Assembly: GCA_016204995.1 (NCBI GenBank)
Contig: JACQJR010000001.1
Coordinates: forward strand, 369,132-433,131
Direction of reading: 5' to 3'
Source: Candidatus Microgenomates bacterium
GTDB lineage: Bacteria > Patescibacteriota > Microgenomatia > UBA8517 > JACQJR01
DNA length: 64,000 nt
This document shows, piece by piece, positions 23,203 through 55,970 of the stretch. The position numbers were made by a program, and so were the translations under genes. Each line of letters starts with the position of its first letter. Position 1 is the first letter of the stretch. The notes beneath the pieces were generated by a model. That model saw nothing but the letters and a program-made list of their open reading frames with translations, did not search any database and was not told the origin of the DNA.

Positions 23203-24240
23203 TTACAACAAGTATTTGTCAATGTTCTGTTGATGTTCTTCGGAGTTGGCCGCATAGTGGATTTGGCCGGTATTATCATGCAGATAGAACCAATAAGGAG
23301 AATCTTGGGGACTCGCTGCAGCTTTAATTGAGGACAGTCCAGGACTGGCAATTGGTCCGGGCGGCAAACCGCGATGTAAATAAGTATTGTAAGGAGAATT
23401 TATTTTTTTATCCGCCACTGTGGCTGGTTCCCACCAGGAACAATTTTCGTCCAGATGACGACCAGCCTTTGGCTGGGAGATTTGACCTGCCTGCGCAGGC
23501 AGGCATTTGAGATTGACAACTGCGTACTGCAGTGTCGCATCAGCTTGCAAAGGCCAACCAGCCTTTATTCTTTTCAGTAAAATACCGGCGACAATCGGCC
23601 GCTCCTCATCGGTTCTGGTTTCCCGCTCTATGATGGAAGCCAAGGTTACTAATTTTTCCAAAGTTAAATCTTGTTGCTTGGCTTGGGAAATTATGTCTGC
23701 GGAAACTTTTTTATCAAAAGTATCACGCAGTTTTTTCACCACTGCCCCGGCAGTAGCATTTCTGCTCAACAAATAAGTATCGGGGAAAAGGAAACCTTCC
23801 ATGCCTTGCGACTCTTTCATAAATTCTTTCAAAAAAATCTGCTGTTTTTCTGAAGTTAACTCCAAAGCAGTCGCTATTTTTTGGGCGATTTCTTCCCGGC
23901 GAAAACCTTCCGGAATAGTCACCCATAGAGCCACTGGCCCACGAATTAACTCTGCTACTAATTGAGGTAATGGTAAATTTTTAGTAATTCTAAAATCGCC
24001 GGCCGGGATTTTTTTAGTCCGATCGGCAATGGAAACGTAAACTTTAAAAGCCAAAGAAGAACGAATAAAACCTTGTTTTTCTAACTCATCACCGATTTGA
24101 GAAGCGCTTTCGCCTTTGATAATCACAAAGGGATAGTAAATTTTATCAGTGGAAGGAGCAATGGTAGCATCTCGCCACCACCACATCACGAGTAGGGGCA
24201 AGGCAATGATTATCAGAAGAAATGTAACAAGACGTTTCAT
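23203..24240 (-). CDS. mltG: endolytic murein transglycosylase MltG/YceG family; carries an 18-bp palindromic insertion encoding LPAQAG
   Basis: 345 aa; N-terminal TM; YceG-like core ...GEGFLFPDTYLL...LASIIERET...; synteny alaS...ruvX-small ORF-mltG as in Firmicutes. Confidence 0.85.
   Translation of the reverse strand: MKRLVTFLLIIIALPLLVMWWWRDATIAPSTDKIYYPFVIIKGESASQIGDELEKQGFIRSSLAFKVYVSIADRTKKIPAGDFRITKNLPLPQLVAELIRGPVALWVTIPEGFRREEIAQKIATALELTSEKQQIFLKEFMKESQGMEGFLFPDTYLLSRNATAGAVVKKLRDTFDKKVSADIISQAKQQDLTLEKLVTLASIIERETRTDEERPIVAGILLKRIKAGWPLQADATLQYAVVNLKCLPAQAGQISQPKAGRHLDENCSWWEPATVADKKINSPYNTYLHRGLPPGPIASPGLSSIKAAASPQDSPYWFYLHDNTGQIHYAANSEEHQQNIDKYLL
23486..23503. repeat. 18-bp perfect palindrome CCTGCCTGCGCAGGCAGG (core of the 36-bp element), in-frame in mltG
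   Basis: matches the two 9-bp arms of the 36-bp element without the inner 18 bp; encodes LPAQAG. Confidence 0.8.
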
Positions 24241-25505: not shown

Positions 25506-27715
25506 TGTTCGGCAACCACCTTAATGGTAATGTTGTCGCTTTTTTGAGGCAGAAAATCGGACAGAAATGGCAAACGGGGAGAAAATTTAATGGAAGTACG
25601 AGAATAGCCTGGTAAAGCAGCCAGTTTTGTCTTAACCTCCGATTGGCTTTTACCAGCCAGTTGCGAAACCAGCTGTCTTTGATTAATCTGCGGCAGTAAA
25701 TTAGCTTGCGCTGTCACATTAATAGTCAGCACCTTATTTTTTTCTTTTTTCTCACCTGTCTGGCTAATGGAACTAAAACTAGCTGCTATATCACCCTCTT
25801 CTAAATTAAACTTCTCTGGCACTTTGGGACGCAAAACAGTTAATAGCTGGCTGTTTAACTGATCATGCGGTATGGTTACTGCTATTCCTTCCGCTTCTAG
25901 GTTTAACTTCAAGGTTTGTGCTTCCTCACCGACATTATGAGAAAATGAACGTCGCACAATGTTCATTTGGATTGATTCATTAATGACTGTTTCATCGCCA
26001 CTAACCTTCTGTCTAATATCTGTCTTAAATTTGTCGGTCAGTTCTGCCAACAGGTCTGTTTCCAGTTTTTGTCTATCTTCTTTGGCCACAGCCGGTACTT
26101 CTCGCGAGCTGCCGCCGGTAAAAACATTATCGTTTTTGGCAGCAAAACTATTGGTGGAAAAATTAGTGATCGCAAAACTATTGCCAGAGGCTAAATTGTA
26201 TTGGGTACCAATATCAGCCGCACTAATTACGGCTTTGGCTTGGCCTAGCACAATGTTGGGCAAAATGCCAGAGGCGGAGGCCACCGTCACCTGACTATCA
26301 AGACTGAACTTTAAACCGTTAGGACCAACTAAAATGGTATGAGCGGGAAAAGTTTTGGGCTGGGCGGTGTTATTGAAAATTATGACCTCTCCTTTGGCCC
26401 GATCTCCCACAGTTTTAGAACCGGTAGTGGAAGTAGTCTTTTCACCTTCCACGGTAGAAGAAATGGTCCGGCCGGCCACAATACCATCTCCGCTCCCACC
26501 AGTGGGATCAACCTGCAAAGTCAATTTTTCCTCAATTTTTTTAGGAGCAATATAAATAGTGAGCTGGGCCTTGGGTACAAAATACCACACTAAAGTAAAA
26601 ACTAAAATCGTTAATCCCCCTAAAATTAACCATATCTTCAACTTGCCTAAAAACCCACTTTTAGCAGAAACCGCATTAAAGAGGGAATTTAGTTTGGAAC
26701 CGGTCTCCGATCCTGATTTAATCGGGGCAGGCCCGCCTGCACCAACAGGCCTGTCTGCGCCAGCAGGCTCCACCACTTCCTCGTGGGTTTCCTGGAAACC
26801 GAAATCTTCTACTGGTGGTGTGACAGCAACTGGCAATTGCGGCTCTGGAGTCACTGAAGAAACCTTTTCCGTAGCAATTTCTTCCTCTACTACTGGTCTC
26901 CGGCCCTGGAAGGTCTCTGGCTCCGATTTAAGCGGGGCTGGTTCTGTCGCAGTGGTTAATTCCGGTTGAACCGGGGCTTCAGTGGAAGCAGCGACTGAAA
27001 TAGCGGATAATAACTCGTCCGATGTCAATCTTTCAATCCTGGGAGTATGCAGGAAAAAGGCCGAAGGCCATTCCCAGTTAACTAAATTTTGCCGTGCCTC
27101 CTCCAACTCGTTATTATTTCTGTTGTATAAAACTAACCGCGCAGGCAGTGATTCTCCGACGCCAAAACGGGATAAGCCCTCGGTAATATCATCTGCCAGC
27201 GATATACTGCGGCTGACCAGATGGGAATTAACAATTTTACCCGATCTAACCAATAACACTTCCGCTTCCTCTTCTTCAATACCAACTAAAATGGCCGAAA
27301 GGGGTGAGCCTTCTTTGTTTTTCAAAAAATGAATAATCGCTTCCGGTACTACCACAAAGCCTTTAGGTTTAAGTTCTAATTTTTCGCACAAGAGACGCAG
27401 GTGGGCCAGTTTTTCAGGAACAATATTACCATCTTCTATCCAGAAATTAGGCAAGCCAAAAACTACTGATAAAATTTCCTCCGGCGGCTCATTCATACTA
27501 CCTACTGCGGCTGATAAACTGTCATCAGCCGCCTGGACAAAAGATTCACTGTCCTGCCAAGCATCAGTCGTGCCGGCTGCCATTAATTCACCCTGACCGG
27601 ATAGAGTACGCCACAAACCGGCCTGAATCCAATTTTTACCAATCACAAAGGAAACAAATACTTCTTGCGGAGTTTCTTTTTTACCAATAATTTCCGTAAT
27701 GCTGGGCAATTTCAT
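25502..27715 (-). CDS. bitopic membrane protein: N-terminal cytoplasmic FtsA/PilM-like actin-fold domain, Pro-rich linker carrying repeat-element insertions, TM helix, large extracytoplasmic domain
   Basis: 737 aa; N-terminal region resembles PilM/FtsA subdomains (VFVSFVIGKNWIQAG..., AILVGIEEEEAEVLLVRSGKIV); TM KIWLILGGLTILVFTLVWYFV; the linker contains PAGADRPVGAG and PIKSG encoded by the palindromic elements. Confidence 0.5.
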   Translation of the reverse strand: MKLPSITEIIGKKETPQEVFVSFVIGKNWIQAGLWRTLSGQGELMAAGTTDAWQDSESFVQAADDSLSAAVGSMNEPPEEILSVVFGLPNFWIEDGNIVPEKLAHLRLLCEKLELKPKGFVVVPEAIIHFLKNKEGSPLSAILVGIEEEEAEVLLVRSGKIVNSHLVSRSISLADDITEGLSRFGVGESLPARLVLYNRNNNELEEARQNLVNWEWPSAFFLHTPRIERLTSDELLSAISVAASTEAPVQPELTTATEPAPLKSEPETFQGRRPVVEEEIATEKVSSVTPEPQLPVAVTPPVEDFGFQETHEEVVEPAGADRPVGAGGPAPIKSGSETGSKLNSLFNAVSAKSGFLGKLKIWLILGGLTILVFTLVWYFVPKAQLTIYIAPKKIEEKLTLQVDPTGGSGDGIVAGRTISSTVEGEKTTSTTGSKTVGDRAKGEVIIFNNTAQPKTFPAHTILVGPNGLKFSLDSQVTVASASGILPNIVLGQAKAVISAADIGTQYNLASGNSFAITNFSTNSFAAKNDNVFTGGSSREVPAVAKEDRQKLETDLLAELTDKFKTDIRQKVSGDETVINESIQMNIVRRSFSHNVGEEAQTLKLNLEAEGIAVTIPHDQLNSQLLTVLRPKVPEKFNLEEGDIAASFSSISQTGEKKEKNKVLTINVTAQANLLPQINQRQLVSQLAGKSQSEVKTKLAALPGYSRTSIKFSPRLPFLSDFLPQKSDNITIKVVAEQ
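26741..26781. repeat. degenerate copy of the 36-bp element in the linker of the 737-aa membrane protein gene
   Basis: GCAGGCCCGCCTGCACCAACAGGCCTGTCTGCGCCAGCAGGC shares TGTCTGCGCCAGCAGGC with the element; encodes EPAGADRPVGAG in the same relative frame. Confidence 0.6.
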
Positions 27716-27729
27716 TTTGGCGAGTATCT

Positions 27730-29076
27730 CTATTTTACACCTTGGCGGGAAACTTGTTGATGCCGACTAAATTCTTCGTTAAACTGTTGTCTATCAATTT
27801 TCTGACCTTTAACCGCAAATAATTCTTCCAAAACTTCTAAAGGAAAACCATAAGTTTGATAAAGATCAAAAGCAATCTTGCCGTCAATTTGAGCAATTTT
27901 TTCAATCTCTGCCAAACCTCTCTCTAAAGTTTTACCAAATTTATCCAGCTCTTGGCGAATAACATCAGCTATCTCATCTTTTTTAGAAATATCTAACATA
28001 TCGGTACCAGCGTATGTGTCAATAACACTACCACTGACTACTGCTAAATCTTGAGGTTTTTCCGTGGAACCGCAGATGCTATTAAATTTTACCGCCGCTC
28101 TTCTTAATAGTCTTCTTAAGACATAACCTTGCATTTTGTTGGAAGGTAGAATATCACTGGCAATAATAAAAGTAGCCGCTTTCATATGATCGGTAATGAT
28201 CTCAAATTGCTCTGATACAGCGATATCTTGGTAACTTCTTCCACTAATATTTTCTATTGCAGTAATAATTTTACTAAATAAGTCTGTCTCAAATATATCA
28301 GGGTTATCATTTGTTGCCGCTGTCATTCTCTCTAAACCGCCGCCAAAATCCACGTTTTTTTGGGTAAGTTCTTGTAAAGTTCCGTCCGCTTGCTTTTGAT
28401 ATTGGATAAAAACCGAGTTGCCGATTTCTACAAATCTGCCGCAATCGCAATTAGGATGACATTTATCTCCAAATCTTGGATCATGTTCCACTTGAGTAAA
28501 TTCATAAAATACTTCACTGTCCGGACCGCCGATTTCGCCGGCTGGCATTTGCTCCGGTGTGCCCGAACGAGACCACCAGTTTTTTTCTACGCCGTAGGCG
28601 AAAATATGATCCTCGGGGACGCCTAAACTTTTCCAGATTTCATAAGACTCATTATCTTTTGGTACTCCACTATTGCCACCTGTCCCGAGCGAAGCCGAGG
28701 GATCAAAAATACTGACATACAATTTTTCGTGAGATAGCTTTAACTCTTCTGTTAAAAATTGCCAAAACCAGGGAAGTTGTTCTTTTTTAAAATAATCTCC
28801 CAAAGACCAATTACCTAACATTTCAAAAAAAGTAGTATGGCGATTATCACCTACTTCTTCTATATCCTGTGCTCTAAAACATTTTTGGGAATTAACTAGT
28901 CTTTTTCCTTGCGGATGCGGCTTACCCAATAGATAGGGAACTAAAGGCTGCATGCCAGCACTGGTAAATAAAGTGGAAGGGTCATTTTCCGGAACAAGAG
29001 ATGCACTAGGGATTTCCTGATGCCCATATCTCACAAAAAATTCAATATATTTTCTCCGCACCTCTTCTGAAGTCAT
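27730..29076 (-). CDS. alaS: alanine--tRNA ligase, N-terminal catalytic/tRNA-recognition half only (448 aa; no editing or C-Ala domain)
   Basis: FTSAGM, FFEMLGNWSLGDYFK class-II AlaRS motifs; ORF ends after the tRNA-recognition region. Confidence 0.85.
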   Translation of the reverse strand: MTSEEVRRKYIEFFVRYGHQEIPSASLVPENDPSTLFTSAGMQPLVPYLLGKPHPQGKRLVNSQKCFRAQDIEEVGDNRHTTFFEMLGNWSLGDYFKKEQLPWFWQFLTEELKLSHEKLYVSIFDPSASLGTGGNSGVPKDNESYEIWKSLGVPEDHIFAYGVEKNWWSRSGTPEQMPAGEIGGPDSEVFYEFTQVEHDPRFGDKCHPNCDCGRFVEIGNSVFIQYQKQADGTLQELTQKNVDFGGGLERMTAATNDNPDIFETDLFSKIITAIENISGRSYQDIAVSEQFEIITDHMKAATFIIASDILPSNKMQGYVLRRLLRRAAVKFNSICGSTEKPQDLAVVSGSVIDTYAGTDMLDISKKDEIADVIRQELDKFGKTLERGLAEIEKIAQIDGKIAFDLYQTYGFPLEVLEELFAVKGQKIDRQQFNEEFSRHQQVSRQGVK

Positions 29077-34690: not shown

Positions 34691-35023
34691 ATGCCACAAA
34701 TAGAATCACCATTGCCTCATCTACCAGTAGAAATAATTACTATTGGCAAACGCCATGATGAAACGGAAATTCACCCTTGTATGCTTTGCAAAACTCCCAC
34801 TCAAAAAGTCTATTTATCTCACGAGATGTGGACAAATTATAAAGCAATTAGAGCCGAGGAAATGCCGGCTTACAGGTGCGATGACTGCGGTGGACTGGAA
34901 ACTTTTAACACTGAAGGTGTAATTGAATTTCTTACTCAAGCTATTGGTTTAATTAATCCCACTAAAGACCCGATAATACACGAACTTCTCCGTCAAGAGC
35001 TAACTGCTGCTCTTATAGCGTAA
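34691..35023 (+). CDS. hypothetical protein with 4-Cys zinc-ribbon-like motif
   Basis: 110 aa; CMLC...CDDC. Confidence 0.4.
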   Translation: MPQIESPLPHLPVEIITIGKRHDETEIHPCMLCKTPTQKVYLSHEMWTNYKAIRAEEMPAYRCDDCGGLETFNTEGVIEFLTQAIGLINPTKDPIIHELLRQELTAALIA

Positions 35024-35080: not shown

Positions 35081-36730
35081 CTAGACTTCTACTACTACCG
35101 GAATGACAATGGGGCGACGGGAGGTTTCTTCCCATAAAAACGGCTCGGTCATAGCCACAATTTGCTCGCGGACAAAATGAACGTCTTTTAATTTCATCTT
35201 TTGCAAGCGTTGGAAAATCAAATTTTTTAATTTATTGTTAATTGCTTCTTCTGATTTGCCAAACAGGAAACCGCGGGTAATCATATCAATATTTATTAAT
35301 TGGCCACTGGCTGCTTCCCATTGAGCAATCACTGCCACAATTCCTTCCTGGGCTAAAGTTTTGCGGTCGCGCAAAATAACCGGCCCCACTTCACCTATCC
35401 CCATACTATCCACAAAAACTTCCCGCACCGGCACCTTACCAGCCACTTTCACCTGATGCTTGTCTATTACAATAGCATTATCCGCCTCTGGCAAAATTAT
35501 TTGCTCTTTTCTATATTTCATCTCATTTGCCAATAGGCGGAATCTGTGCATATGGCGTAAAGTTCCGCCAATTGGGATAAGAGCGCGAGGACGAGTTAAG
35601 GCAATTAACAAAGCAATTTCTGAATGACTGGCATGACCAGACACATGCAAATCATCGGCAATTTCCGCATAGGTAACTGACACGCCGCTGGCGGTTAATA
35701 AATCAATTAAGGCATGAATGGCTAGCTCATTGCCGGGAATATAATCGGTGGAAAAAAGCACGTGGTCGCCGCTGGTCAGTTTAATATGAGGATTTAACCC
35801 TTGAGCAATTTTATCTAAAGATGAACCCATCTGGCCTTGAGCCCCGGCCACAATCAAAGTTAATTTTTGCCTCGGAATTTTATGTAATTGTCGTGGGTCA
35901 ACCAAAGTACCAGAAGGAATTCGCAAATATCCTAGTCTTTGGGCCACCCGGGTAGTTTGCTCAAATGATCTTCCCACAAAGCCGACTTTACGGCCGTTTC
36001 TGACCGAAGCATCAATCGCCTGCTGCACCCGGGAAATATTGGAAGACATAGTGGTCATGATAAAACGGCCCTGAACGTGTCTAATCTCCCGATCAAACAT
36101 ATCATCCAGCGTACTTTCCGACGGAGTTACTCCTTCGTTTTCAATTCTCAAGCAATCTGAAAAAAGCAAATCCACTCCGGCATCGCCGGCCCGGGCAATG
36201 GCTGCCACATCGGAAATTTTGCCGTCAATCGGCGTCCAGTCAAATTTAAAATCACTGCCATGATAGACATTGCCGTAAGGAGTCCGGATAAAATAATGCC
36301 TGGAATCTGGAATAGAATGAGTAATGGGAATAGCCGTAATTTGAAAAGCTCCCAAAGTTAGCTGTTTATCAATCTCACGAAAATTAGCCCCGACGGCAAA
36401 TTCTTTTAGTTTCTCGCTAGCCAGCCCTAAAGTTAATTTACTGCCGTAAATAGGAATTTGTGAACCGCCTTGCAGTTTAGGTAAAACATAAGGCAGGGCG
36501 CCAATGTGATCTTCGTGACCATGGGTTAAAACTATTCCCTTAATTCTTTTTTCCTTGCCCCGTAAAACCGAAATATCAGGAATTACTAAATCTACCCCAA
36601 ACATTTCTTCCTGGGGAAAACCAAAGCCGCAATCTACAATTAAAATATCTCCCTCCGGCGCAATCTCATAAACGAACATGTTGGTCGTCACCCGACCAAA
36701 ACCGCCCAAATTATAGATTTTTAACATCAT
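35081..36730 (-). CDS. rnj: ribonuclease J (beta-CASP metallo-beta-lactamase RNase)
   Basis: 549 aa; LTHGHEDHIGALPY motif and beta-CASP region. Confidence 0.85.
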   Translation of the reverse strand: MMLKIYNLGGFGRVTTNMFVYEIAPEGDILIVDCGFGFPQEEMFGVDLVIPDISVLRGKEKRIKGIVLTHGHEDHIGALPYVLPKLQGGSQIPIYGSKLTLGLASEKLKEFAVGANFREIDKQLTLGAFQITAIPITHSIPDSRHYFIRTPYGNVYHGSDFKFDWTPIDGKISDVAAIARAGDAGVDLLFSDCLRIENEGVTPSESTLDDMFDREIRHVQGRFIMTTMSSNISRVQQAIDASVRNGRKVGFVGRSFEQTTRVAQRLGYLRIPSGTLVDPRQLHKIPRQKLTLIVAGAQGQMGSSLDKIAQGLNPHIKLTSGDHVLFSTDYIPGNELAIHALIDLLTASGVSVTYAEIADDLHVSGHASHSEIALLIALTRPRALIPIGGTLRHMHRFRLLANEMKYRKEQIILPEADNAIVIDKHQVKVAGKVPVREVFVDSMGIGEVGPVILRDRKTLAQEGIVAVIAQWEAASGQLINIDMITRGFLFGKSEEAINNKLKNLIFQRLQKMKLKDVHFVREQIVAMTEPFLWEETSRRPIVIPVVVEV

Positions 36731-37797
36731 GCTGGCAGATACTCCTTAATGTTACTTTCCGTAAGTTGCACTTGACTAGTTTTTCCCTCTACTATCAGTT
36801 TAGCTACTTTTCGCACAATTGCCTCAATGGTTCTTTCTAAAGTTCTCATCCCTGCATCATAACCTAATGGTCGCACAATTATCGGCCAGACGGAATCGGC
36901 AATTTGGACAGCTTGGGAATTAAGACCGGCTTCTGTTAAAGTCCGAGGCAATAAAAATTTACTGCCAATCACGATTTTTTCGCTATCGGTATAAGAGGGC
37001 ATGGGAATTACTTCCAACCGATCAAGGACGGCTGTCGCGATATTATTAGTATTATTGGCTGTCGCAATAAATAGAGCTTCTGATAAATCAAATGGGTAAT
37101 CAAGATAGCTATCAAAAAAAGCCACGTTTTGCTCCGGATCTAAAATTTCAACTAGTGCCCCCATAATAGAAGCCCGTGAGGTTTGTTCCACCCGATCAAT
37201 CTCGTCCAACAGTATCACCGGATTTTTGGCACCACTCCGAATTAAAGCTTTCATAATTTGGCCTGGTTCTGCTACCATGTCAAAACGAGGCCGACCCCGT
37301 AGCATCGCCACCTCTCCTAAACCGCCAAAGGGAATTCTGACAAAATTTCTACCTAAGGCCTGGCTAATTGATTTGGCAATCGTGGTTTTACCAGTACCGA
37401 CTAAACCGACGAAACATAAAATCGGCGCCCGCAGGGAATGATTACCTGCCTGCGCAGGCTTGTCTGCGCCAGCAGGCAGGTCTCCTTTTTCTTTTTTCAA
37501 TTTCATCACGGCCATATATTCCAAGACGCGTTCTTTCAAATCGTTTAGACCATAATGATTACTATCTAAAATTTGTTTAGCGTGGGTTAAATCCAGGGTG
37601 TCTGGCGTTCTTTTCTCCCAGGGTAAAGTTGTAACTACATCAATATATTCATCAAGTCTTTCGCGTTCAGTAAAAGGCATTTCGGAAGAGCTAAAGCGGG
37701 AGAGGTAATTATTAATCAGGTCAGCTAAATCACCCGGCAAAGAAGCTTGTTTAACTTTCTCGGAAAGCTTAGTTAATTCATCCGTTGGGACAGGCAT
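36727..37797 (-). CDS. Lon-like AAA+ ATPase module without N-terminal substrate domain or C-terminal S16 protease domain; carries a 36-bp in-frame palindromic insertion before Walker A
   Basis: 356 aa; HYGLNDLKERVLEYMAV, ILCFVGLVGTGKTT, VILLDEIDRV, EILDPEQN and YDAGMRTLER motifs typical of the Lon AAA+ domain; stop overlaps the rnj start (ATGA). Confidence 0.75.
   Translation of the reverse strand: MPVPTDELTKLSEKVKQASLPGDLADLINNYLSRFSSSEMPFTERERLDEYIDVVTTLPWEKRTPDTLDLTHAKQILDSNHYGLNDLKERVLEYMAVMKLKKEKGDLPAGADKPAQAGNHSLRAPILCFVGLVGTGKTTIAKSISQALGRNFVRIPFGGLGEVAMLRGRPRFDMVAEPGQIMKALIRSGAKNPVILLDEIDRVEQTSRASIMGALVEILDPEQNVAFFDSYLDYPFDLSEALFIATANNTNNIATAVLDRLEVIPMPSYTDSEKIVIGSKFLLPRTLTEAGLNSQAVQIADSVWPIIVRPLGYDAGMRTLERTIEAIVRKVAKLIVEGKTSQVQLTESNIKEYLPA
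37445..37480. repeat. 36-bp palindromic element (CCTGCCTGCGCAGGCTTGTCTGCGCCAGCAGGCAGG) inserted in-frame in the lon-like gene
   Basis: identical to 43062-43097; 9-bp terminal inverted repeats CCTGCCTGC/GCAGGCAGG; encodes LPAGADKPAQAG on the minus strand. Confidence 0.9.
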
Positions 37798-37806
37798 ACA
37801 ACTTAA

Positions 37807-40113
37807 TTATCTCTCATCTCGTCGTGATCTGAAAGGTCGCACTCCACGTCTTTCCGGCATAAAACGCGAAATAGGAAAATGCGGCGCCCGGCTCATTCCT
37901 CCCGGACGGCGGCCGAAATTACGCGGCCCGCGACTGTCGTTCCGATCAGATCTGACTGGACCACCACGATCCCTCCGATCATCAGTTTTCGCGCCTTCAC
38001 CATTTCTCATGGTTAAATTAATTCTACCCAACTCATCAATTTCCTTAACTTTGACAGTAACTTTTTGACCAATAGAAACTACTTCGTTGGGATCATTGAC
38101 AAATGAATCGGACAAATCAGAAATGTGGACTAAACCGTCTTTACCTGGCAAAATCTCCACAAAGGCCCCGAATGGCTGAATCCGTTTCACTTCCCCTTCG
38201 TAAACCTCCCCCGGCTGAACTTTTTTGGTTAAACCCTCTATCACGCTTCTGGCTTTCAGGACTGATTCATCACTTACGCCGCTGATATTAACTGTGCCGT
38301 CATCTTCCACCTCAATTTGAGCCCCGCTATCGGCCATAATCTTGCGGATCATCCGACCGCCCGGACCAATCACTTCGCCAATTAATTCGGTAGGAATATG
38401 CAGCATCACAATCCGGGGAGCGTATTCCGACAGCTTCTCCCGCGGCGCAGCTAAATGCTCGGTAATTTTAGCTAAAATATGCATTCTGCCTACTTTGGCC
38501 TTCTCCAAAGCTTGTTCCAAAATAGCCACTGTCAACTCTAACGTTTTGACATCTAATTGAATAGCGGTAATACCTTCACTCGTGCCTGCTACCTTAAAAT
38601 CCATATCGCCCGAGCCATCTTCAATACCGGCAATATCAGATAAAACTACAAAGTTGTCTTTATCTATTACCAAACCCATGGCAATACCGGCTACTGGCCG
38701 GGAAATTGGCACGCCGGCATCCATTAAGGCTAGCGTGGAACCGCAAGTAGAAGCCATAGAAGTGGAACCGTTGGAAGATAAAATTTCTGACACCACGTGA
38801 ATTGCATAGGGAAACTTTTCTTCACTAGGCAAAACTGGCATGAGAGCTCTTTCTGCCAAGGCTCCATGGCCGATTTCGCGGCGGTTAGGACTGCCAATCC
38901 GACCAGTTTCGCCAGTGGCATAAGGCGGCATGGAATAATAATGCATATAGCGCTTGGTTTCTTCGCCTTCGGCCGACTCTATCTTTTGTTCTAAACTAGG
39001 AGCACCTAGCGTTGCTACTGACAAAGCTTGAGTTTGGCCACGGGTAAAAATGGCTGAACCATGAGTGCGGGGCAAAATACCAGTTTGAACGGTAATTTGA
39101 CGAATTTCTTCTGGTTTACGACCATCTGGCCGAATACCTTTCAAAAGTTTATCTCTTAATCTTTTACGAACAATTTCTTCAAAAACGAAGGAGGCTTGTT
39201 GATCAGTGATGTGGAAATCTTCTTTAATGGCAGCCTTGATGGCAGCTGCTTCTTGCTCACTGGTACGGTTGGTAGCCCGGCCAATGGCCCATTCTTCAAT
39301 CTGATCACCATATTTTTTATCAATTTCGGCACTTTCTTTAATCTTGGCTGAAGAGGTTGGTAATTGTTTAGCTCCTACTTTTTGGACAAATTCGTTAATT
39401 CCGGTTTGTATAACTTTAATTTCGCGTTGTGCAGCAGTGATGGCTCCAATGATCTTTTCCTCGCTGATCTCACGAGAGCCTGCTTCTAACATTAAAATTG
39501 ATTCATCATGTCCAGTCACCACTAAATCAAGGTCGGAAAATTTCAATTCTGACTCTAAAGGATTAATAATAAAATCACCATTGATGGCGCCTACTCTAAC
39601 TACCCCGACTGGCCCCTTCCAAGGGGTACCAGCTAAAGCTAGAGCTGCTGAAGCTGCTACCGCTGATAAAACTGCCGGATCATTTTCCGCGTCAACCGAC
39701 AGGGTAGTTAAAACTACTTGGACTTCATCACGATAATCTTTAGGAAAGAGGGGACGAAGAGAGCGATCAATTAAACGACCGGACAGAATTGCCTCGTCAC
39801 TTGGCCTACCTTCTCGTTTGACCCATTGGCTACCTTTGATCCGGCCACCGGCGTAAAGTCTTTCCACATAATCAACCGTCATCGGCATATAACCAGGATC
39901 ATTAAGTAATGGTTTAACCACCACGGTCGCCAAAACTATTAAATCGCCATAGCGAGCCATGACCGCGCCGCTGGCAAAGCCGGCAATATCACCAGTTGAG
40001 AAAATTAATTTTCTGCCTGCGACTTCAAATTCGTGGGTAATCTTCTCACGAGTCATTTTTACTTGAGTAACTTTTTTTTGAGTTTCTTTTTTCATTCTTT
40101 CTTTGTCTAACAT
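37807..40113 (-). CDS. pnp: polyribonucleotide nucleotidyltransferase (PNPase) with Arg-rich C-terminal tail
   Basis: 768 aa; two RNase PH domains, KH and S1 domains; C-terminal DRRDRGGPVRSDRNDSRGPRNFGRRPGG... Confidence 0.95.
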   Translation of the reverse strand: MLDKERMKKETQKKVTQVKMTREKITHEFEVAGRKLIFSTGDIAGFASGAVMARYGDLIVLATVVVKPLLNDPGYMPMTVDYVERLYAGGRIKGSQWVKREGRPSDEAILSGRLIDRSLRPLFPKDYRDEVQVVLTTLSVDAENDPAVLSAVAASAALALAGTPWKGPVGVVRVGAINGDFIINPLESELKFSDLDLVVTGHDESILMLEAGSREISEEKIIGAITAAQREIKVIQTGINEFVQKVGAKQLPTSSAKIKESAEIDKKYGDQIEEWAIGRATNRTSEQEAAAIKAAIKEDFHITDQQASFVFEEIVRKRLRDKLLKGIRPDGRKPEEIRQITVQTGILPRTHGSAIFTRGQTQALSVATLGAPSLEQKIESAEGEETKRYMHYYSMPPYATGETGRIGSPNRREIGHGALAERALMPVLPSEEKFPYAIHVVSEILSSNGSTSMASTCGSTLALMDAGVPISRPVAGIAMGLVIDKDNFVVLSDIAGIEDGSGDMDFKVAGTSEGITAIQLDVKTLELTVAILEQALEKAKVGRMHILAKITEHLAAPREKLSEYAPRIVMLHIPTELIGEVIGPGGRMIRKIMADSGAQIEVEDDGTVNISGVSDESVLKARSVIEGLTKKVQPGEVYEGEVKRIQPFGAFVEILPGKDGLVHISDLSDSFVNDPNEVVSIGQKVTVKVKEIDELGRINLTMRNGEGAKTDDRRDRGGPVRSDRNDSRGPRNFGRRPGGMSRAPHFPISRFMPERRGVRPFRSRRDER

Positions 40114-40139: not shown

Positions 40140-40415
40140 TTATGGAAGCTTTTCCTCTTTTAATTGCGACATCAGTTTAGCGTATCTTGTTTTATCCCGT
40201 CTTTCTAAATAACTTAATAATCTTCTCCTTTTGGCTACCATTGATAAAAGACCGCGACGGGAATGATCATCTTTTTTATGAGTTTGCAAATGTTGAGCTA
40301 GTTTTTGAATTTGGACGGAAAGAAGTGCTATTTGTACTTCAGGACTGCCTGTATCTTTCTCTCCCTGACCAAATTTTTCAATGATTCTCTGCTTTTCTTG
40401 AGGCTCAAGTGCCAT
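40140..40415 (-). CDS. rpsO: 30S ribosomal protein S15
   Basis: 91 aa; [49 protein letters not shown]15 signature; upstream of pnp. Confidence 0.85.
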
Positions 40416-41156: not shown

Positions 41157-41357
41157 TTAAGTTAGCTCTTCTTTTTTAATTCCAGATTGTCTAAGTATAC
41201 TTTGCAAGGTGCCTGGTTTTAAATCTTTATTGTGATATGGCACTGTAACTCTTAAATCACTTTTTCTATATAATCTATGACTACCTTTTTGTCGGATAAA
41301 TTGAAACCCTTCTTTTTCCAAGACTTTAATAATTTGTCTTGGTTTGACAGATTTCAT
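41157..41357 (-). CDS. hicA: HicA-family mRNA interferase toxin
   Basis: 66 aa; QIIKVLEKEGFQFIRQKGSHRLYRK... with conserved GSH. Confidence 0.75.
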   Translation of the reverse strand: MKSVKPRQIIKVLEKEGFQFIRQKGSHRLYRKSDLRVTVPYHNKDLKPGTLQSILRQSGIKKEELT

Positions 41358-41593
41358 AGACTAACTTGGATGGGGGAAACCACAATGGGTTTAGATTCAC
41401 GGGGAATTTCTGTTCCTTTTAAATCTTCTACATAAAGTTCTGCCGCTTCTTTAATATTATCTAAAGCTTCTTCAAAAAAATCCCCTTCAGAAATACAACC
41501 TGGCAAAGCAGGAATTGACACTGAATATCCCCCACCCTTTTCAGGCTCAAAAACCGCTGTATAAGTTAAAACTTGAGCCATTTTCTTGACCAT
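41354..41593 (-). CDS. hicB: HicB-family antitoxin (UPF0150-like)
   Basis: 79 aa; YTAVFEPEKGGGYSVSIPALPGCISEGDFFEEALDNIKEAAELYVED; 4-nt overlap with the downstream hicA. Confidence 0.65.
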   Translation of the reverse strand: MVKKMAQVLTYTAVFEPEKGGGYSVSIPALPGCISEGDFFEEALDNIKEAAELYVEDLKGTEIPRESKPIVVSPIQVSL

Positions 41594-42496: not shown

Positions 42497-43936
42497 TTAC
42501 CTTACGGACTCTAACACATCTCCAATCTGAAAGTCAACAGTACCTGCAAAAATAAGGCCGCATTCTTGACCTTTTTCCACTTTATCCACTGTTTTGTCTG
42601 CTTGTTTCATGGAACTTATCTTAACCTTACCGATAACTTCCCCTTTTCTACTTAAAGTTAAATTATCGCCGCGGGCAATTCGGCCTTCAGCGACACGAAT
42701 TCCGGCAATTTTTTGATTCGCCCCAAAAGGAAATTGAGCAATAATTTCTGCCCTGCCTAAAATTTTAACTTCTTCTGCCACTTCTCCAGCCAAAGCTTTG
42801 GCTATCCAGTCAAAAATTTCATAAATAATGGCAAAAGAGAAAATTTTAACCTTGTCTTCTTCGGCTTGCTGGAGGACTTCTGGCGGGACTTTGACCCCGA
42901 AGGCAATAATGGTAGCGCCAAAAGAACTAGCCAGCGCTACATCGCCGGCAGTCACTTCACCAGTACCGCTAGATAAAACTACTACTTCGCTAGACAATCC
43001 TGCCATTAACGCTTCTAGTCTGCCGGCCGTATCAGCCTTGATAATTAAAGAGAGTTTTGCTCCTGCCTGCGCAGGCTTGTCTGCGCCAGCAGGCAGGCCT
43101 TCTTTAACTTCTTGTTGTTTAACGTTAGCTGATTCCACCTTCACCACCCCACCTTCGCCCGCAAGTTTTACCTGACTGCCGACTGTCGGTACTTTTTCCA
43201 ACCCTAAAATTTGCCCGGCCTGTCCCGGCAACACTGACTCTAAATTTTGGCCTTGATCACCGATTAAAGCCTTAACTTTTCCCACTACTTCACCAGCTGT
43301 AATTTTATCGCCCAAATTAAGCTGTCCATTTCTGACAATGACAGTGGCTAAGGCTCCCTTCCGGCTGTCAAATTGCGATTCAATCACTGTAGCTTCTAAG
43401 ACGGCTTCGCTGTCGCCTTTAATCTCGTGAATTTCACTTACCAAACTAATCATTTCTAGTAAATGAGAAATTCCCTGACCGGTTTTACTGGATACTTCCG
43501 TCACCACAATATCGCCGCCGCGACCCTCCAGAAGAATTCCTTCTTTTTCTAGTTCTTGTTTGACTCGCTCTGGTTGGGCAGTCGGTAAATCAACTTTAGT
43601 TAAAACAACGATAAAAGGCACCTGGGCGGCGCGGATAAATTGCAAAGACTCCCTAGTTTGCGGTTTAACCCCATCATCGGCTGCCACAATTAATAACACA
43701 ATATCAGCCACATTGGCTCCCCGTGAACGCATTTGAGAAAAAGCGGCATGGCCGGGAGTATCTATAAAAGTGATGGGTTGAGAGTTATGAGTTATGAGGT
43801 AAGCGCCGATGTGCTGGGTAATACTGCCTGCTTCCCGAGAGGCTACGTTAGTTTTACGGATCGCGTCTAACAGGGAAGTTTTGCCATGATCAACATGGCC
43901 TAAAACGGCGACAATCGGTGAAAGTGATATATTCAT
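42497..43936 (-). CDS. infB: translation initiation factor IF-2, minimal form starting at the G domain; carries the 36-bp in-frame palindromic insertion
   Basis: 479 aa; [27 protein letters not shown] motifs; C-terminal IF2 beta-barrel; insertion LPAGADKPAQAG in domain II. Confidence 0.9.
   Translation of the reverse strand: MNISLSPIVAVLGHVDHGKTSLLDAIRKTNVASREAGSITQHIGAYLITHNSQPITFIDTPGHAAFSQMRSRGANVADIVLLIVAADDGVKPQTRESLQFIRAAQVPFIVVLTKVDLPTAQPERVKQELEKEGILLEGRGGDIVVTEVSSKTGQGISHLLEMISLVSEIHEIKGDSEAVLEATVIESQFDSRKGALATVIVRNGQLNLGDKITAGEVVGKVKALIGDQGQNLESVLPGQAGQILGLEKVPTVGSQVKLAGEGGVVKVESANVKQQEVKEGLPAGADKPAQAGAKLSLIIKADTAGRLEALMAGLSSEVVVLSSGTGEVTAGDVALASSFGATIIAFGVKVPPEVLQQAEEDKVKIFSFAIIYEIFDWIAKALAGEVAEEVKILGRAEIIAQFPFGANQKIAGIRVAEGRIARGDNLTLSRKGEVIGKVKISSMKQADKTVDKVEKGQECGLIFAGTVDFQIGDVLESVR
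43062..43097. repeat. 36-bp palindromic element, in-frame in infB
   Basis: identical to 37445-37480; same reading frame; encodes LPAGADKPAQAG. Confidence 0.9.
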
Positions 43937-46504: not shown

Positions 46505-47392
46505 TTATAATCCTTCTTCCGCCAATTCTTCAATTAATTCTTTTTGATCTCGGGTCAGTTTTTCAGGGATAGCCACATTCACCCGAACATACTCGTCGCC
46601 TCGTCCCCGGCCGCGCAGATGGGGGATACCACGCTCCTTTAATCTCATCATGGAGCCTGATTGAATACCAGGCCGGATCCGCAATTTCAAATCGCCATCA
46701 ATTGTCGGCACTTTAATTTCCCCGCCCAGTACCGCCAGGCTAAAAGGAATTACTACTTCTACAATCACGTCGCTCCCTTCTCGTCTAAAAACCGGATCTG
46801 GCTGAACACCAATTGTGATATCAAAATCGGCAAAGGCCAAATGAGTTCCATCGTCTGCCCCGGCCGGGATTTTAATAGTCCGTTTTTTGCCCTCAATAGC
46901 AACAGTTTTTTCAACTCCTTTGGCCGCTTCCTTAAAACTAATCTCTAAATGATAATGGGGTTTTTGGGCGCGTCTGTCTCCAAAAGGCGAACCGCCACCG
47001 AAAAATTGTTCAAAAATTTCAAAGGGATCGCCAAAGTCTCCAAAAGGCGAACCGCCACCAGAAGTGGTATAAGTATAAGTAAAAGGACCATAACGGCCAG
47101 TGCGAGCCTGTCCACCGCCACCTCCGAAACCACCACCAAAAGGCCCGCCGCCTGGCATGCCACCGGGGGTAAAAGCGGCATGACCAAATTGGTCATAAGC
47201 GTTCTTTTTTTCCGGATTAGAAAGGACTTCGTAGGCCTCGCTGGCTTCTTTGAATTTTTGTTCAGCTTCGGCGGATTTATTGCGGTCTGGATGCCACTCT
47301 AGGGCTTGCTTGCGATAAGCGCGTTTTATTTCCTCACTTGAGGCATTTTTGGTAACTCCCAGAATATCATAGTAATCTCTTTTTGTAGCCAT
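46505..47392 (-). CDS. dnaJ: J-domain co-chaperone (DnaJ/CbpA-like, no zinc-finger region, single C-terminal domain)
   Basis: 295 aa; J domain [33 protein letters not shown]; G/F-rich region with internal duplicated GGGSPFGD; no CxxCxGxG repeats. Confidence 0.8.
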
Positions 47393-47404
47393 AATAATTC
47401 AATT

Positions 47405-47817
47405 ACAAATGCTAAATGATAAATGCTAAATTAATTTTTCTTCGCATTGATAACAATTTTGCTAATTATAGCAATTATCTGCTGATTCTCATCTAAAACT
47501 GGCTCAAATCTAGTTTTTAAACTTAAATTATGGTCGGACAATAATGATAGCCAATAATGCGTTTCTTTTGCTTCTTTCTTAGAAATAGTAAACCTATGTA
47601 TAAACTCTTTCTTAGATTCTGCTCCATCCGCCTCGCTGGCATTCGCACCTATTGAACCAGATGATCTTATAACTTGTCTTATCATTACTAAATTTTCTGG
47701 AGTATTGGGTACGAATTTAACTATTTGGAGAACACCTAAGACGAATTTATATATTCTATTATGTATATCTCTAGTTTTGATTTCATTGGCCATTTATCAT
47801 TGGACATTTAGCATTAA
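47405..47817. repeat. inverted repeats flanking the four-helix-bundle gene (left 47405-47430, right 47794-47817)
   Basis: left AAATGCTAAATGATAAATGCTAAAT; reverse complement of the right AATGCTAAATGTCCAATGATAAATG; shared AATGCTAAATG and ATGATAAATG blocks in inverted orientation. Confidence 0.6.
47431..47793 (-). CDS. four-helix-bundle protein (23S rRNA intervening-sequence protein family, TIGR02436-like)
   Basis: 120 aa; ...SGSIGANASEADGAESKKEFIHRFTISKKEAKETHYWLSLL... typical of this family; inserted between dnaK and dnaJ; flanked by inverted repeats. Confidence 0.7.
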   Translation of the reverse strand: MANEIKTRDIHNRIYKFVLGVLQIVKFVPNTPENLVMIRQVIRSSGSIGANASEADGAESKKEFIHRFTISKKEAKETHYWLSLLSDHNLSLKTRFEPVLDENQQIIAIISKIVINAKKN

Positions 47818-49730
47818 CTTACCACTTCTCCCTCTTCCACATTCTCTTTCTTTTTATCTTCTTTTTTTTCTTCCGCTTTCTCATCGGATCCGGCTTCACC
47901 GGAGGAGGCGGCTTCACCCTGTGGCTGAGCTTGTTGGTACATGGCACTTCCAACTTGCTGTAAAACTTCAGAAAGAGATTTGGTAGCCAGTTCCAACTGA
48001 TCTTTGCCAGCATCTTCTTGGGCCAGCAGTTCTTTCACTTTCTTCACCTCGTCTTCTACTTTAGTTTTGACATCGGCCGACACTTTATCTCCCGCATCTT
48101 TTAAAGTTTTATCGGCAGTAAAAACCAACGCATCAGCATTGTTTCTGGCTTCAATCGTTTCCTTTTTGGCTGCATCTTCGCTGGCGTGCTTTTCTGCCTC
48201 TTCTTGCATCTTCTTGATTTCACTATCTGACAAACCCACCGCCCCGGTAATGGTAATTTTCTGTTCCCGGTTGGTCGCTTTATCGTGTGCTTTTACATTT
48301 AAGATGCCGTTCGCGTCCATATCAAAAGTTACTTCAATTTGGGGAATGCCGCGTGGTGCCGGCGGAATACCATCTAAAATAAACCTGCCTAAAGATTTGT
48401 TATCAACAGCTAATGGCCGCTCACCTTGAGTGACATTAATCTCCACTTGAGTTTGATTATCAGCCGCCGTGGAGAAAATTTGGCTTTTGCTGGTGGGCAC
48501 CGTGGTATTTCGCGGAATCATGGGGGTAGCCACTCCGCCTAAAGTCTCAATAGATAAACTCAAAGGCGTCACATCCAGCAGTAAAATGTCTTTGACTTCA
48601 CCTGATAACACCCCGCCTTGAATGGCCGCGCCGATTGCCACCACCTCATCCGGATTAACCCCCTTATGCGGCTCTTTGCCGAAAAATTCGTGGACTACTT
48701 CCTGAACTTTGGGCATTCTGGTCATTCCCCCTACTAACACCACCTCGTCTACTTTTTTGGAATCTACTTTGGCGTCTTTCAAACAAGCCGCGACTGGCTT
48801 CATCGTCTTCTCAATTAAATCACCCACCAAAGCTTCCAATTTGGCCCGAGATAATTTCATGGTCAAATGCAAAGGAGTGCCGTCTTTTTGAGTAATGTAG
48901 GGTTGGTTAATTTCAGTTTCGGTGGCGCTGGAAAGTTCAATCTTGGCTTTTTCGGCCGCATCTCGTAATCTTTGTAAGGCTTGAGGGTCTTGCCGCAAAT
49001 CAGTACTGTATTCTTTCTTAAACTCATCGGCAATCCAATTCATAATCACCTGATCAAAATCGTCTCCGCCTAAATGGGTATCGCCGTTAGTAGCTTTAAC
49101 TTCAAAAACACCTTCGCCCAATTCCAAAATAGAAATATCAAAAGTGCCGCCGCCCAAATCGTAAACGGCAATGGTGTGGGCATTTTTCTTATCAAGACCA
49201 TAGGCCAAGGCCGCCGCGGTTGGTTCGTTAATAATCCGCTCCACTTTCAACCCGGCAATTTCCCCGGCCTGTTTAGTGGCAGTTCTTTGATTGTCGTCAA
49301 AATAAGCAGGAACCGTAATAACGGCCCGATCAACTGTTTCGCCTAAATAACTTTCCGCATCTTTTTTCAATTTTGTCAAAATGCGAGCAGAAATTTCCTG
49401 AGGAGAATAAGCTTTCCCTTCTACCACCACTTCAGCCAAACCATCTTTGCCGGCGCGAATCTCATAAGGCACCATTTTCTTGGTTTTTTCTACTTCGGGA
49501 TCGCTAACTCTGTGGCCCATCAATCTTTTAATGGAATAAATGGTGCTCTTGGGGTTTAAAATCATTTGCCGTTTGGCCACATCACCTACCAAATTTTTAA
49601 CCGGCTCAACAACGGATGGGGTAATATTGCGGCCAGTATCAGCCGCCGGAATCACCTTGGGCTGTCCGCCTTCCAAAACCGCGACGACCGAATTAGTCGT
49701 TCCTAAATCAATACCGATTATTTTACTCAT
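47814..49730 (-). CDS. dnaK: molecular chaperone DnaK (start taken at internal [14 protein letters not shown])
   Basis: [32 protein letters not shown] Hsp70 signatures. Confidence 0.96.
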
Positions 49731-50151
49731 GTAATTCCTCCTTTTTTCCAAAAACCTTCACTTTGGCTGGCCGAATGATAAAATCCTCATTTTTCATTTT
49801 CCAGCCTGGCTGAACTACTTCGCAAATGGTATTAACCTGATCGTCTTCTACCATCTGTACTGCTTCTTCCAAAAGCGGATTAAATTTATCTCCTACTTGG
49901 ACTGCTATTACTTCTACTCCTAGATCCGCCAGAGCCGATTTAAAATCTTGAATGACTAATTCTAAACCGCTATCCTTTAAATGCTCCTGGGCCTTATTTA
50001 GCATATCAAAAACTGGCAAAATTCTCAAAACTATTTTGGCAGTTTCAATTTTTGACCAATCTGCCCGATCTGACTCAATCCTTTTTCTTAAATTATCATA
50101 ATCGGCCAGAGCTCTGGCCAGTTGAATTTTTAACTCATTTTTTTTCTGCAT
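49723..50151 (-). CDS. grpE: nucleotide exchange factor GrpE (short form)
   Basis: 142 aa; coiled-coil then ...[14 protein letters not shown]... GrpE motif; between hrcA and dnaK. Confidence 0.8.
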
Positions 50152-50155
50152 ACAA

Positions 50156-50893
50156 TTAGAAATCCCTCATCGCTTCTGATAATAAACTGCCAAAATATCT
50201 GACGCGGGGTATGACATAAGAAAAAGGCAGGCGAGCCGGCCCTACTACCCCGACTGCACAATGTCGACCTTTATTACCAATGAGAAATTTGGTGGCCACA
50301 ATCCCAATTGGCTCAAAATAGGGCCAGCCTAATTCTTCCCCGAACAGAATTGCTACCGGCTCTCCCGGTAATTTTTCAAAAAATAGTTCCTGTATTCTTT
50401 TAACTTCTTCCAAGATGGCTAAAACATGAGAGGTCACGTCAATATTATAAAATTCCGGCTTTTCTAAAATTTTAGCATAGCCGGCGTGCCAAATTGAATC
50501 GTCATCTTCTAGGGCGCCAATCGCTAAAGTACCAGTAGATTGGGCCAGAGCGCGAGTGGCTTCGCGCATCACATGATCCACGTCACGCTTTGAATCTTTA
50601 ATTCGCTCCTTAGCTGAAACCTCTTCGGTGACTGACAGCTGTTTTTCATCCATTAACTGCTGGACATAGAAACGCAAACCGCGAGAGGTGGGAATGCGGC
50701 CGGCAGAGGAGAAGGTCTGTTTTAGAAAGCCAGAACGAGTCAAAGCTACCATTTCATTACGAATAGTAGCAGGCGATACACCTAAACTATATTTTTTCTC
50801 CAGAGTTTCTGAACCGACTGGTTCAGCCGCTTCAATATATTCTTCAATTAGCGCCTTTAAAATATGAGCTTGTCTGGGAGTTAATTCGTTCAT
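50156..50893 (-). CDS. hrcA: heat-inducible transcription repressor HrcA
   Basis: 245 aa; N-terminal wHTH LTPRQAHILKALIEEYIEAAEPVGSETL; CIRCE element immediately upstream. Confidence 0.85.
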   Translation of the reverse strand: MNELTPRQAHILKALIEEYIEAAEPVGSETLEKKYSLGVSPATIRNEMVALTRSGFLKQTFSSAGRIPTSRGLRFYVQQLMDEKQLSVTEEVSAKERIKDSKRDVDHVMREATRALAQSTGTLAIGALEDDDSIWHAGYAKILEKPEFYNIDVTSHVLAILEEVKRIQELFFEKLPGEPVAILFGEELGWPYFEPIGIVATKFLIGNKGRHCAVGVVGPARLPFSYVIPRVRYFGSLLSEAMRDF

Positions 50894-52849: not shown

Positions 52850-53158
52850 ATGCCACAGACAAAATCGGCAAAACGGGCTTTAAGAGCCAGCAAGGACCGG
52901 AGATTAAGAAATGCCAAAATTTCTGCCGGTTATAAAAAGGCCATTAAGCTGGCACGCGCCAAAAATACTCCCAGCCTAATAAGCACTGCATATCAAACAT
53001 TGGATATGGCAGCTAAAATTGGCGTTATTCATTGGAAAAAAGCGGCCCGCCTAAAAAGCCAATTAGCCAAAGCTGGACAAAAGACTCCAAGTTCCACCAC
53101 TCAACCAAAAGTCAAGAAATCTTCTAAGAATGTAAGTTTGAAAAGTATTTTTAACTAA
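52850..53158 (+). CDS. rpsT: 30S ribosomal protein S20; the last 9 codons are supplied by the 94-bp repeat element
   Basis: MPQTKSAKRALRASKDRRLRNAKISAGYKKAIK... S20 signature; C-terminus ...NVSLKSIFN encoded by the repeat starting at 53131. Confidence 0.8.
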   Translation: MPQTKSAKRALRASKDRRLRNAKISAGYKKAIKLARAKNTPSLISTAYQTLDMAAKIGVIHWKKAARLKSQLAKAGQKTPSSTTQPKVKKSSKNVSLKSIFN

Positions 53159-53224
53159 CTTTAGGTTCAATTTTACAAATTTTGATAAATTTTCGAACCT
53201 AAATCATTTTTCAAACTTACACTC
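53131..53224. repeat. 94-bp repeat element copy 1 (internally palindromic, MITE-like); left boundary of the GC-rich insert
   Basis: identical over 94 of 94 bp to 55877-55970; terminal inverted repeats GAGTGTAAGTTTGAAAA / TTTTCAAACTTACACTC and inner AGGTTC...GAACCT. Confidence 0.9.
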
Positions 53225-55510: not shown

Positions 55511-55876
55511 TCACATGCTTTCAACAGATCCCGGATGTTCCCTGGTCGGCAGTATCTTACCCAATTCGGCAGCGATGTCATTGGTAGTAATATTCAGTTC
55601 GTCGCCAAAGGCACCCACAGTTCTGGCTGCTCTCATAGCAGCCTGACGCGCCCCTGCATTGACAGCTCCGGCGATTTCGGCCGGTGATCGTCCTGCCGCA
55701 ATTTCTACTAGGCGCTCCAGATCGACCAGGTCTGCCCCCGGCTTGCCGCTAAGATGAATTTTCAAGACAAGGCGCCTAGCATCCGGATCAGGTAATCCTA
55801 CTTCGACCTTACTATCGAAGCGGCCCGCGCGGAGCAGTGCCTCATCCAAATCGGACGGACGGTTTGTCGCTGCGAG
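55511..55876 (-). pseudogene. 5'-truncated AAA+ ATPase gene (FtsH/CDC48-type C-terminal fragment) cut at the 94-bp repeat
   Basis: the reading frame runs ...[22 protein letters not shown]... (AAA second region of homology and sensor) with no upstream Walker A or B; the upstream end is replaced by repeat sequence at 55877. Confidence 0.6.
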
Positions 55877-55970
55877 TGTAAGTTTGAAAAGTATTTTTAA
55901 CTAACTTTAGGTTCAATTTTACAAATTTTGATAAATTTTCGAACCTAAATCATTTTTCAAACTTACACTC
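55877..55970. repeat. 94-bp repeat element copy 2 (direct orientation)
   Basis: perfect copy of 53131-53224; flanked on the left by the truncated AAA gene and on the right by the truncated istA. Confidence 0.9.

Follow-up and report, generated by a model that had tools for sequence, protein, structure and literature searches.

Lon is defined as a single chain carrying both an ATPase and a protease (PMC9569914), and the genome-reduced Mycoplasma pneumoniae has only two essential ATP-dependent proteases, of which Lon is one (PMC7737663). In LonA (E. coli, B. subtilis, Meiothermus and human LONP1; MEROPS S16, TIGR00763) an N-terminal substrate-binding domain (N domain) and a helical region with a coiled coil, HI(CC), ending in a three-helix bundle, precede the nucleotide-binding (NB) domain, the Lon-type lid and the Ser-Lys protease domain (domain naming as in PMC6722904 and PMC8244335). 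Several known systems invite comparison. LonC of Meiothermus taiwanensis (PMC3391209) is a Lon derivative that has kept the protease with a dead ATPase and displays no ATP-powered unfolding; the FtsHi pseudo-proteases of chloroplasts (PMC8197885) belong to an AAA+ protease lineage in which an ATPase function was kept after the loss of proteolysis; and ClpX and HslU, the free-standing unfoldases of the HCLR clade, are single AAA+ modules encoded apart from their peptidase. Here we describe a further arrangement, a Lon-derived stand-alone AAA+ ATPase encoded in a 64,000-nucleotide stretch of a Candidatus Microgenomates genome (contig JACQJR010000001.1), hereafter the window, whose positions are used throughout.

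The gene occupies 36727-37797 on the minus strand and encodes a 356-aa protein equivalent to about residues 244-582 of E. coli Lon (EcLon), as judged from their alignment. Pfam recovers AAA (PF00004; residues 127-263, 5.6e-17) and Lon_lid (PF22667; residues 289-340, 9.1e-11) in this protein, with no match to LON_substr_bdg (PF02190) or to Lon_C, the S16 Ser-Lys protease domain. The NCBIfam model TIGR00763 ("endopeptidase La") is matched only over profile positions 252-572 of 795, with 332.1 bits against a cutoff of 608.05, and NF008053 scores 236 against a cutoff of 891. Matches in the PDB are all to LonA or LONP1 and only to the AAA+ part (for example B. subtilis 3m6a, residues 7-338, with the construct starting from 240), those to bacterial LonA entries showing 35-37% identity and phmmer E-values of 1e-64 to 4e-74. 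The preliminary description, made from the sequence alone, had called this a Lon AAA+ module devoid of the N-terminal and S16 domains, and the Pfam, TIGR00763, PDB and EcLon comparisons all agree with it.

The monomer predicted by AlphaFold2 with the family alignment (pLDDT 90.5, pTM 0.86) has N-terminal helices at residues 5-17, 22-37, 42-57, 70-80 and 85-104 (pLDDT 78-97). According to this model and the EcLon alignment the coiled-coil part of HI(CC) is missing and only its last three helices are left, residues 1-104 (37486-37797, minus strand; aligned to EcLon 244-343) constituting the three-helix bundle. The Lon-type lid, the alpha-helical domain, takes up residues 266-356 (36730-37002, minus strand), with the sensor-2 Arg R318 at 36844-36846, and the chain ends in ...EYLPA at the lid/protease boundary. 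Foldseek returns LonA and LONP1 chains only, with TM values of 0.8-0.87 relative to the query; the one most similar in extent is 6N2I (TMt 0.89), the EcLon(235-584) fragment, which likewise comprises three helices, a flexible linker and the NB and H domains (PMC6722904). That fragment was made in the laboratory by cutting down a protease, whereas the window protein occurs naturally, is under selection and has a rebuilt pore-1 loop. In the same manner the likeness to LonC, another Lon derivative minus one of its two activities, is that of a mirror image, since in the present case it is the protease that is gone, with the ATPase intact; and the analogy with the FtsHi proteins is a functional one, as these are membrane-bound, belong to another AAA+ clade and retain a degenerate protease domain where here the domain is deleted. 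The PADLOC defence models, which include BrxL-type Lon-like ATPases, gave no specific match, the best being a weak generic AAA hit (DolB, 2.7e-06, 24.9 bits).

The missing domains were also sought around the gene. A tblastn search with the N domain of E. coli Lon and with its protease domain (EcLon 586-784) turns up only chance matches (E >= 0.057) in the 64-kb window and in the relatives' loci L001-L006, and no coding capacity for either domain is present in 86 relatives' loci (±10 kb, ~20 kb each; tblastn, E <= 1e-5). Pfam identified no peptidase among 20 further open reading frames (ORFs) of the window, those recognized being hrcA/dnaK/dnaJ, murJ, alaS, IS21 and pilN/O. The ATPase ORF cannot be extended upstream, because the stop codon of pnp lies only 9 nt away, and because pnp and rnj are full-length on either side there is neither space nor another reading frame for the lost domains. 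A split gene rather than a loss, which the preliminary description had held up as one outcome that would overturn it, is accordingly not what is seen, no protease-domain ORF standing beside the gene in the window or in the relatives' loci; nor is there a frameshift, the other such outcome, with rnj complete directly behind the ATPase gene.

The short form is a conserved gene of Microgenomates under strong purifying selection, with relatives in Dojkabacteria. The window protein is identical to that of an NCBI entry from a 609-kb contig, labeled "AAA family ATPase [Candidatus Microgenomates bacterium]", and the best 120 of the 90%-identity clusters are all 342-373 aa long and contain AAA and Lon_lid only; the 119 next-best of these are 58-66% identical to it and come from Woese-, Gottesman- and Blackburnbacteria and their relatives. 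Scanning one genome per GTDB species for two family-specific peptides (FVGLVGTGK and VRPLG[YF]DAG), a procedure that yields a lower bound, we found at least 553 species genomes encoding the same ~348-aa form, with three matches on complete chromosomes; the taxa are Woese-, Gottesman-, Shapiro- and Blackburnbacteria, plus a Dojkabacteria relative. The ratio of nonsynonymous to synonymous substitution rates (dN/dS) is 0.044, 0.086 and 0.092 for the three unsaturated gene pairs. Across the relatives' loci the ATPase is 54-65% identical to the window protein, as compared to 47-67% for PNPase and 31-48% for RNase J, and its identity is also above that of IF-2 from the same loci. The C-termini are uniform, all family members ending in ...[FY]LP[QST][WY] two to three residues past the lid, at a point that aligns with the DYLG turn which in Lon leads into the protease domain. 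A reading of this ending as an HbYX-like docking motif was rejected on account of that alignment and of the 29/120 members that end in ...LPQ without an aromatic residue.

These observations bear directly on the suggestion, made in the preliminary description, that the gene is a remnant. That it is a decaying lon gene, or an artefact of frameshift, misassembly or a truncated gene call, would be in line with the absence of two of the three LonA domains and with the reduced genomes of the Candidate Phyla Radiation (CPR). We consider this refuted and give it next to no chance: the same boundaries recur in all those species genomes and in all 120 best clusters at 54-66% identity, the dN/dS values lie at 0.04-0.09 with the catalytic ATPase residues invariant, intact pnp and rnj genes immediately flank the gene leaving no room for the lost domains, and the identical protein stands in an NCBI record for a 609-kb contig.

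The protease-less form also holds together beyond the closest members. Among the 50%-identity representatives above ~44% identity, an exhaustive search found no Lon protease domain after the lid, except in an ordinary Lon (P0173), and the C-terminal tail of those protease-less representatives is at most 6 aa, except in P0158, where a 193-aa unrelated tail was considered as a degenerate protease domain and rejected as low-complexity; one of these representatives comes from Dojkabacteria. In the N-terminal extensions of P0141, P0132, P0145 and P0143 Pfam recognizes no domain, and blastp finds no resemblance to the N regions of Lon. In a neighbor-joining tree, which has no bootstrap support and an arbitrary root, all protease-less representatives group together; their C-terminal tails are at most 6 aa long, P0158 and P0185 excepted, which carry unrelated ones. 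This grouping into a single clade is suggestive of a single loss of the Lon domains; the closest protease-bearing Lons are those of Firmicutes and Chloroflexi. Members of the short form, including the window protein, can be recognized by a length of ~345-360 aa, a start at the three-helix bundle, the ...[FY]LP.. end and the motifs GLVGTGKT, (D/E)AEPG and VRPLG[YF]DAG. Neither Pfam nor NCBIfam has a dedicated model for it, our full-text literature searches found no paper describing a protease-less or CPR Lon, and the unnamed clade currently carries the database labels "AAA family ATPase" or "Lon protease". Lacking the protease domain, the N domain and the pore tyrosine, and scoring below the curated cutoff, the window protein is not a Lon protease and should not be filed as one; such labels mislead metabolic reconstructions of CPR genomes.

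By its sequence, the gene product reads as an AAA+ ATPase that descends from Lon and is equipped for catalysis. The Walker A motif (P-loop) is GLVGTGKT (G131-T138; 37384-37407, minus strand), where LonA has GPPGVGKT, and its G, G, T, G, K and T are found in 120/120 family members, the L and V in 119/120. The Walker B Asp-Glu pair (D198 and E199; 37201-37206, minus strand), the sensor-1 Asn, the arginine finger R260 (EcLon R484; 37018-37020, minus strand) and the sensor-2 Arg (R318, EcLon R542) are invariant in all 120, and the ATPase residues are also kept in 15 more distant protease-less representatives. Hence the earlier statement that all Lon AAA+ landmarks are present stands for Walker A and B, both sensors and the arginine finger; it does not stand for the pore-1 loop, where the tyrosine of E. 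coli (Y398) is an Asp. This is the most conserved of the axial loops, and with Tyr398 in E. coli it touches the substrate at all stages (PMC6722904). In the window protein it reads RGRPRFDMVAEPG (R167-G179; 37261-37299, minus strand), with Y398 replaced by Asp and I399 by Met. Among 100 protease-bearing Lon representatives the position of Y398 is aromatic without exception (Y in 96, W in 3, F in 1) and that of I399 is V, I or L in 95, whereas in the protease-less family the first is His in 69, Tyr in 21, Arg in 10 and Glu in 9, with Q, N, S, D and F also occurring, the second is Pro or Ala, and a near-invariant (D/E)AEPG replaces G(A/S)MPG. In the rebuilt loop, Tyr-Val/Ile-Gly-(Ala/Ser)-Met-Pro-Gly has in effect given way to Φ-His/Tyr-Pro/Ala-(Asp/Glu)-Ala-Glu-Pro-Gly. 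Since the commonest form in the family is RGQSRMHPEAEPG, the loop has been re-fashioned and has not merely decayed; the Phe-Asp-Met of the window loop is an outlier within the family. As read from these alignments, the loss of the protease coincides with the loss of the canonical translocation motif, with the ATPase engine retained.

Based on this combination we propose that the gene product is probably a functional, oligomeric AAA+ ATPase of Lon origin, working with neither an attached protease nor a canonical threading loop, as a remodeling, holding or regulatory motor. A LonA ancestor would have lost its N-terminal domain for substrate binding as well as the S16 protease domain while retaining the three-helix bundle, the NB domain and the lid, very nearly the extent of EcLon(235-584). 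The product would most likely form an oligomer, either a ring or a spiral, because the invariant, trans-acting arginine finger makes sense only in an oligomer; ATP hydrolysis would then most likely serve to remodel or hold a partner in a protease-independent, perhaps chaperone-like role, rather than to thread it into a covalently attached protease chamber. The gene would normally be co-transcribed with rpsO and pnp. Several points weigh against this proposal. A hydrophobic residue plus His or Tyr is kept in the pore-1 loop of ~75% of members, so that some gripping of polypeptide is possible; the tree behind the single loss has the weaknesses given above; and distant family members are not adjacent to pnp. 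The order pnp...rnj-ftsK, moreover, is old and occurs in Bacillus subtilis as well, so that the synteny with pnp may be inherited and need not point to a shared function; we treat it only as a hint for that reason. Lastly, the protease ring of LonA helps to hold the hexamer together, and isolated EcLon(235-584) crystallized as an open helical hexamer (PMC6722904), which makes a stable ring in the present case an assumption. A large lineage of the CPR retains the Lon motor by itself, under strong purifying selection and with a remade loop for substrate contact, providing a natural experiment on the Lon ATPase without proteolysis, and on its debated chaperone or remodeling activity, with a bearing on how minimal cells run proteostasis.

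The retained pore residues and the intact ATPase site could also be accommodated if the protein were one half of a two-component protease, an unfoldase feeding a peptidase whose gene lies in another part of the genome (ClpP, HslV, an M16 peptidase or a free-standing S16 domain left by an ancient splitting of lon), an option that the preliminary description had entertained and that we regard as rather unlikely. Such an arrangement has precedent, as it is established that the ClpX and HslU unfoldases are as a rule encoded apart from their peptidases, and one distant member, the 507-aa protease-less Lon-AAA protein P0145 of locus L088 (JGI Ga0498920_0000017, 186103-203626), lies beside two M16 and one M23 peptidase genes. 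The option is weakened, however, by the loss of the canonical Tyr-Val/Ile in the whole protease-less clade (the window loop being F-D-M) and by the termination of the protein two to three residues past the lid, with no IGF-type loop and no C-terminal docking tail; ClpX and HslU have the GYVG pore-1 loop, docking elements (IGF loops and a C-terminal tail) and a peptidase gene that is usually adjacent, none of which is found at the window gene (PMC6722904 and established knowledge). Split genes, too, usually stay adjacent, and yet no sequence coding for a Lon protease or N domain occurs near the gene in the 86 loci, and gene calls and Pfam reveal no consistent peptidase neighbor in three distinct close-relative neighborhoods. 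As for L088 itself, P0145 bears a 138-aa unrelated N-terminal extension; its gene is flanked by the two M16 genes and a metallophosphoesterase gene on one side and the M23 gene on the other, and next to it lies a TraG/PrgI-like cluster for conjugation or type IV secretion.

We then examined the contextual information around the motor gene. In the window it forms part of an rpsO-pnp-ATPase-rnj array on the minus strand: rpsO (40140-40415) comes first, followed by pnp (37807-40113; PNPase, 768 aa, with an Arg/Gly-rich C-terminal tail), which ends 9 nt from the ATPase gene, and by rnj (35081-36730; RNase J, 549 aa, full-length by Pfam and NCBIfam), which lies downstream in the transcription unit that they share. 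The overlap of the ATPase stop with the rnj start that had been noted earlier is confirmed as an ATGA (36727-36730), the TGA at 36727-36729 and the ATG at 36728-36730, with AAGGAG upstream. Within ±10 kb, pnp is found upstream on the same strand in 81/86 relatives' loci and is directly adjacent in 58 of those 81, mostly across gaps of 36-150 bp. A downstream rnj on the same strand is present in 76 loci; as it is adjacent in only five of them, usually being separated from the ATPase gene by one or two small genes (a metallophosphoesterase and a UDG-family gene), its overlap in the window is a local compaction peculiar to this genome, and the stable operon partner is rpsO-pnp. Distant members occur elsewhere in the pnp...ftsK region, or beside M16/M23 peptidases or groES-groEL.

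The PNPases of Microgenomates carry an Arg/Gly-rich, RGG-like extension of ~55-110 aa after the S1 domain (37807-~37990, minus strand, in the window), as seen in L028, L030, L035, L058, L072, L074, L075, L079, L087 and others. In at least 48/81 loci it ends in a recurrent PHFP(T/I)SR(L/F); it could be a docking tail, and the gene directly downstream is usually that of the Lon-like ATPase.

One could suppose from the tight rpsO-pnp-ATPase array, the 9-nt gap and the 4-nt overlap in the window that the ATPase is an accessory of RNA decay, working with PNPase (and RNase J) in a degradosome-like manner, for example by docking on the Arg/Gly tail of PNPase or by remodeling RNA-protein complexes. 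The ~55-aa RGG-rich tails with their PHFPxSR motif would fit this, as would the known binding of nucleic acids by LonA, one PDB entry for a Lon AAA+ part being named "DNA-binding ATP-dependent protease La". We hold it to be quite unlikely, given that the adjacency may simply be inherited with the ancient pnp...rnj-ftsK backbone, that distant members stand apart from pnp, and that the acidic, rebuilt (D/E)AEPG loop is ill-suited to the threading of nucleic acids. A more specific version, in which the acidified loop would recognize the PHFPxSR tail of PNPase and the recruited Lon motor would drive the assembly, regulation or recycling of a complex of PNPase and RNase J, has a slimmer prospect still; were a recruitment to RNA decay true, a Lon-derived part would have entered a degradosome-like machine.

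The window copy of the remodeling ATPase that we favor differs from its relatives in hosting a short insertion. Between the helical bundle and strand beta1 lies a linker (residues 105-123; 37429-37485, minus strand) which is the only low-confidence stretch of the AlphaFold2 model (block means of pLDDT 74, 53 and 77); in the loop-length table it measures 8-24 aa across the family, with a mode of 11, and 22 in the window protein. The equivalent segment of EcLon, joining the three-helix bundle to the NB domain, is a flexible "long, extended linker" (PMC6722904). Within it the gene carries a 36-bp imperfect palindrome, CCTGCCTGCGCAGGCTTGTCTGCGCCAGCAGGCAGG, at 37445-37480 (minus strand), which is in frame and encodes (D)LPAGADKPAQAG as residues 107-118. 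The preliminary description had correctly recognized the ATPase gene as a host of this in-frame element, although not its distance from Walker A, given there as six residues: the insert stops 12 residues short of G131, the first glycine of the P-loop, and ~6 short of strand beta1. A second, identical copy lies in frame in infB (GLPAGADKPAQAG; 43062-43097, minus strand), both hosts reading it in the same frame and orientation as LPAGADKPAQAG; none of 100 shuffles gave such a pair. A degenerate copy occurs at 26736-26771 in a 737-aa ORF (PAGADRPVGAG) and a half-site at 23486-23503 in a YceG-like ORF (LPAQAGQ).

At the RNA level the element is predicted to fold into a hairpin of -27.2 kcal/mol (z -4.4). 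It is absent from all relatives' loci examined and has no exact match in the JGI metagenomes, where a 23-nt core matched only two unrelated contigs of 59% GC, judged to be chance matches; no target-site duplication was seen at it. By analogy, it resembles the very small in-frame palindromic elements of Rickettsia. As it falls in a flexible linker whose length in the family runs from 8 to 24 residues, the 12-aa insert is, going by the structural model, very likely tolerated by the ATPase, and it is probably a neutral passenger of the hairpin element.

Several other features of the window may be recorded. An hrcA-(grpE-sized ORF)-dnaK...dnaJ cluster (46505-50893) lies just upstream of nusA-infB, and these chaperone genes share one 15-kb minus-strand stretch with the Lon-like ATPase gene. 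Two 97-nt direct repeats (53128-53224 and 55874-55970; 99% identical, both containing an internal inverted repeat) enclose ~2.6 kb in which the small ORFs have no family match. Directly after them come an IS21-like pair, istA/istB (56093-57758), and a gene for an AbiEii toxin (57768-58424), making up a region that looks like a mobile or recombined island. The alanyl-tRNA synthetase match at 27730-29076 covers only the catalytic core (448 aa; tRNA-synt_2c 1-432 of 552); the alaS product of the relative L001 has 602 aa and includes tRNA_SAD, and the window alaS may be split or shortened. The two overlapping small ORFs at 41157-41593 (79 and 66 aa) resemble a HicB/HicA antitoxin-toxin pair. Finally, between rnj and ftsK the opposite strand carries an ORF of 110 aa (34691-35023, plus strand) with two CxxC-like pairs and no more than a sub-threshold zinc-ribbon match (E 0.006); the relatives have different small genes in its place.

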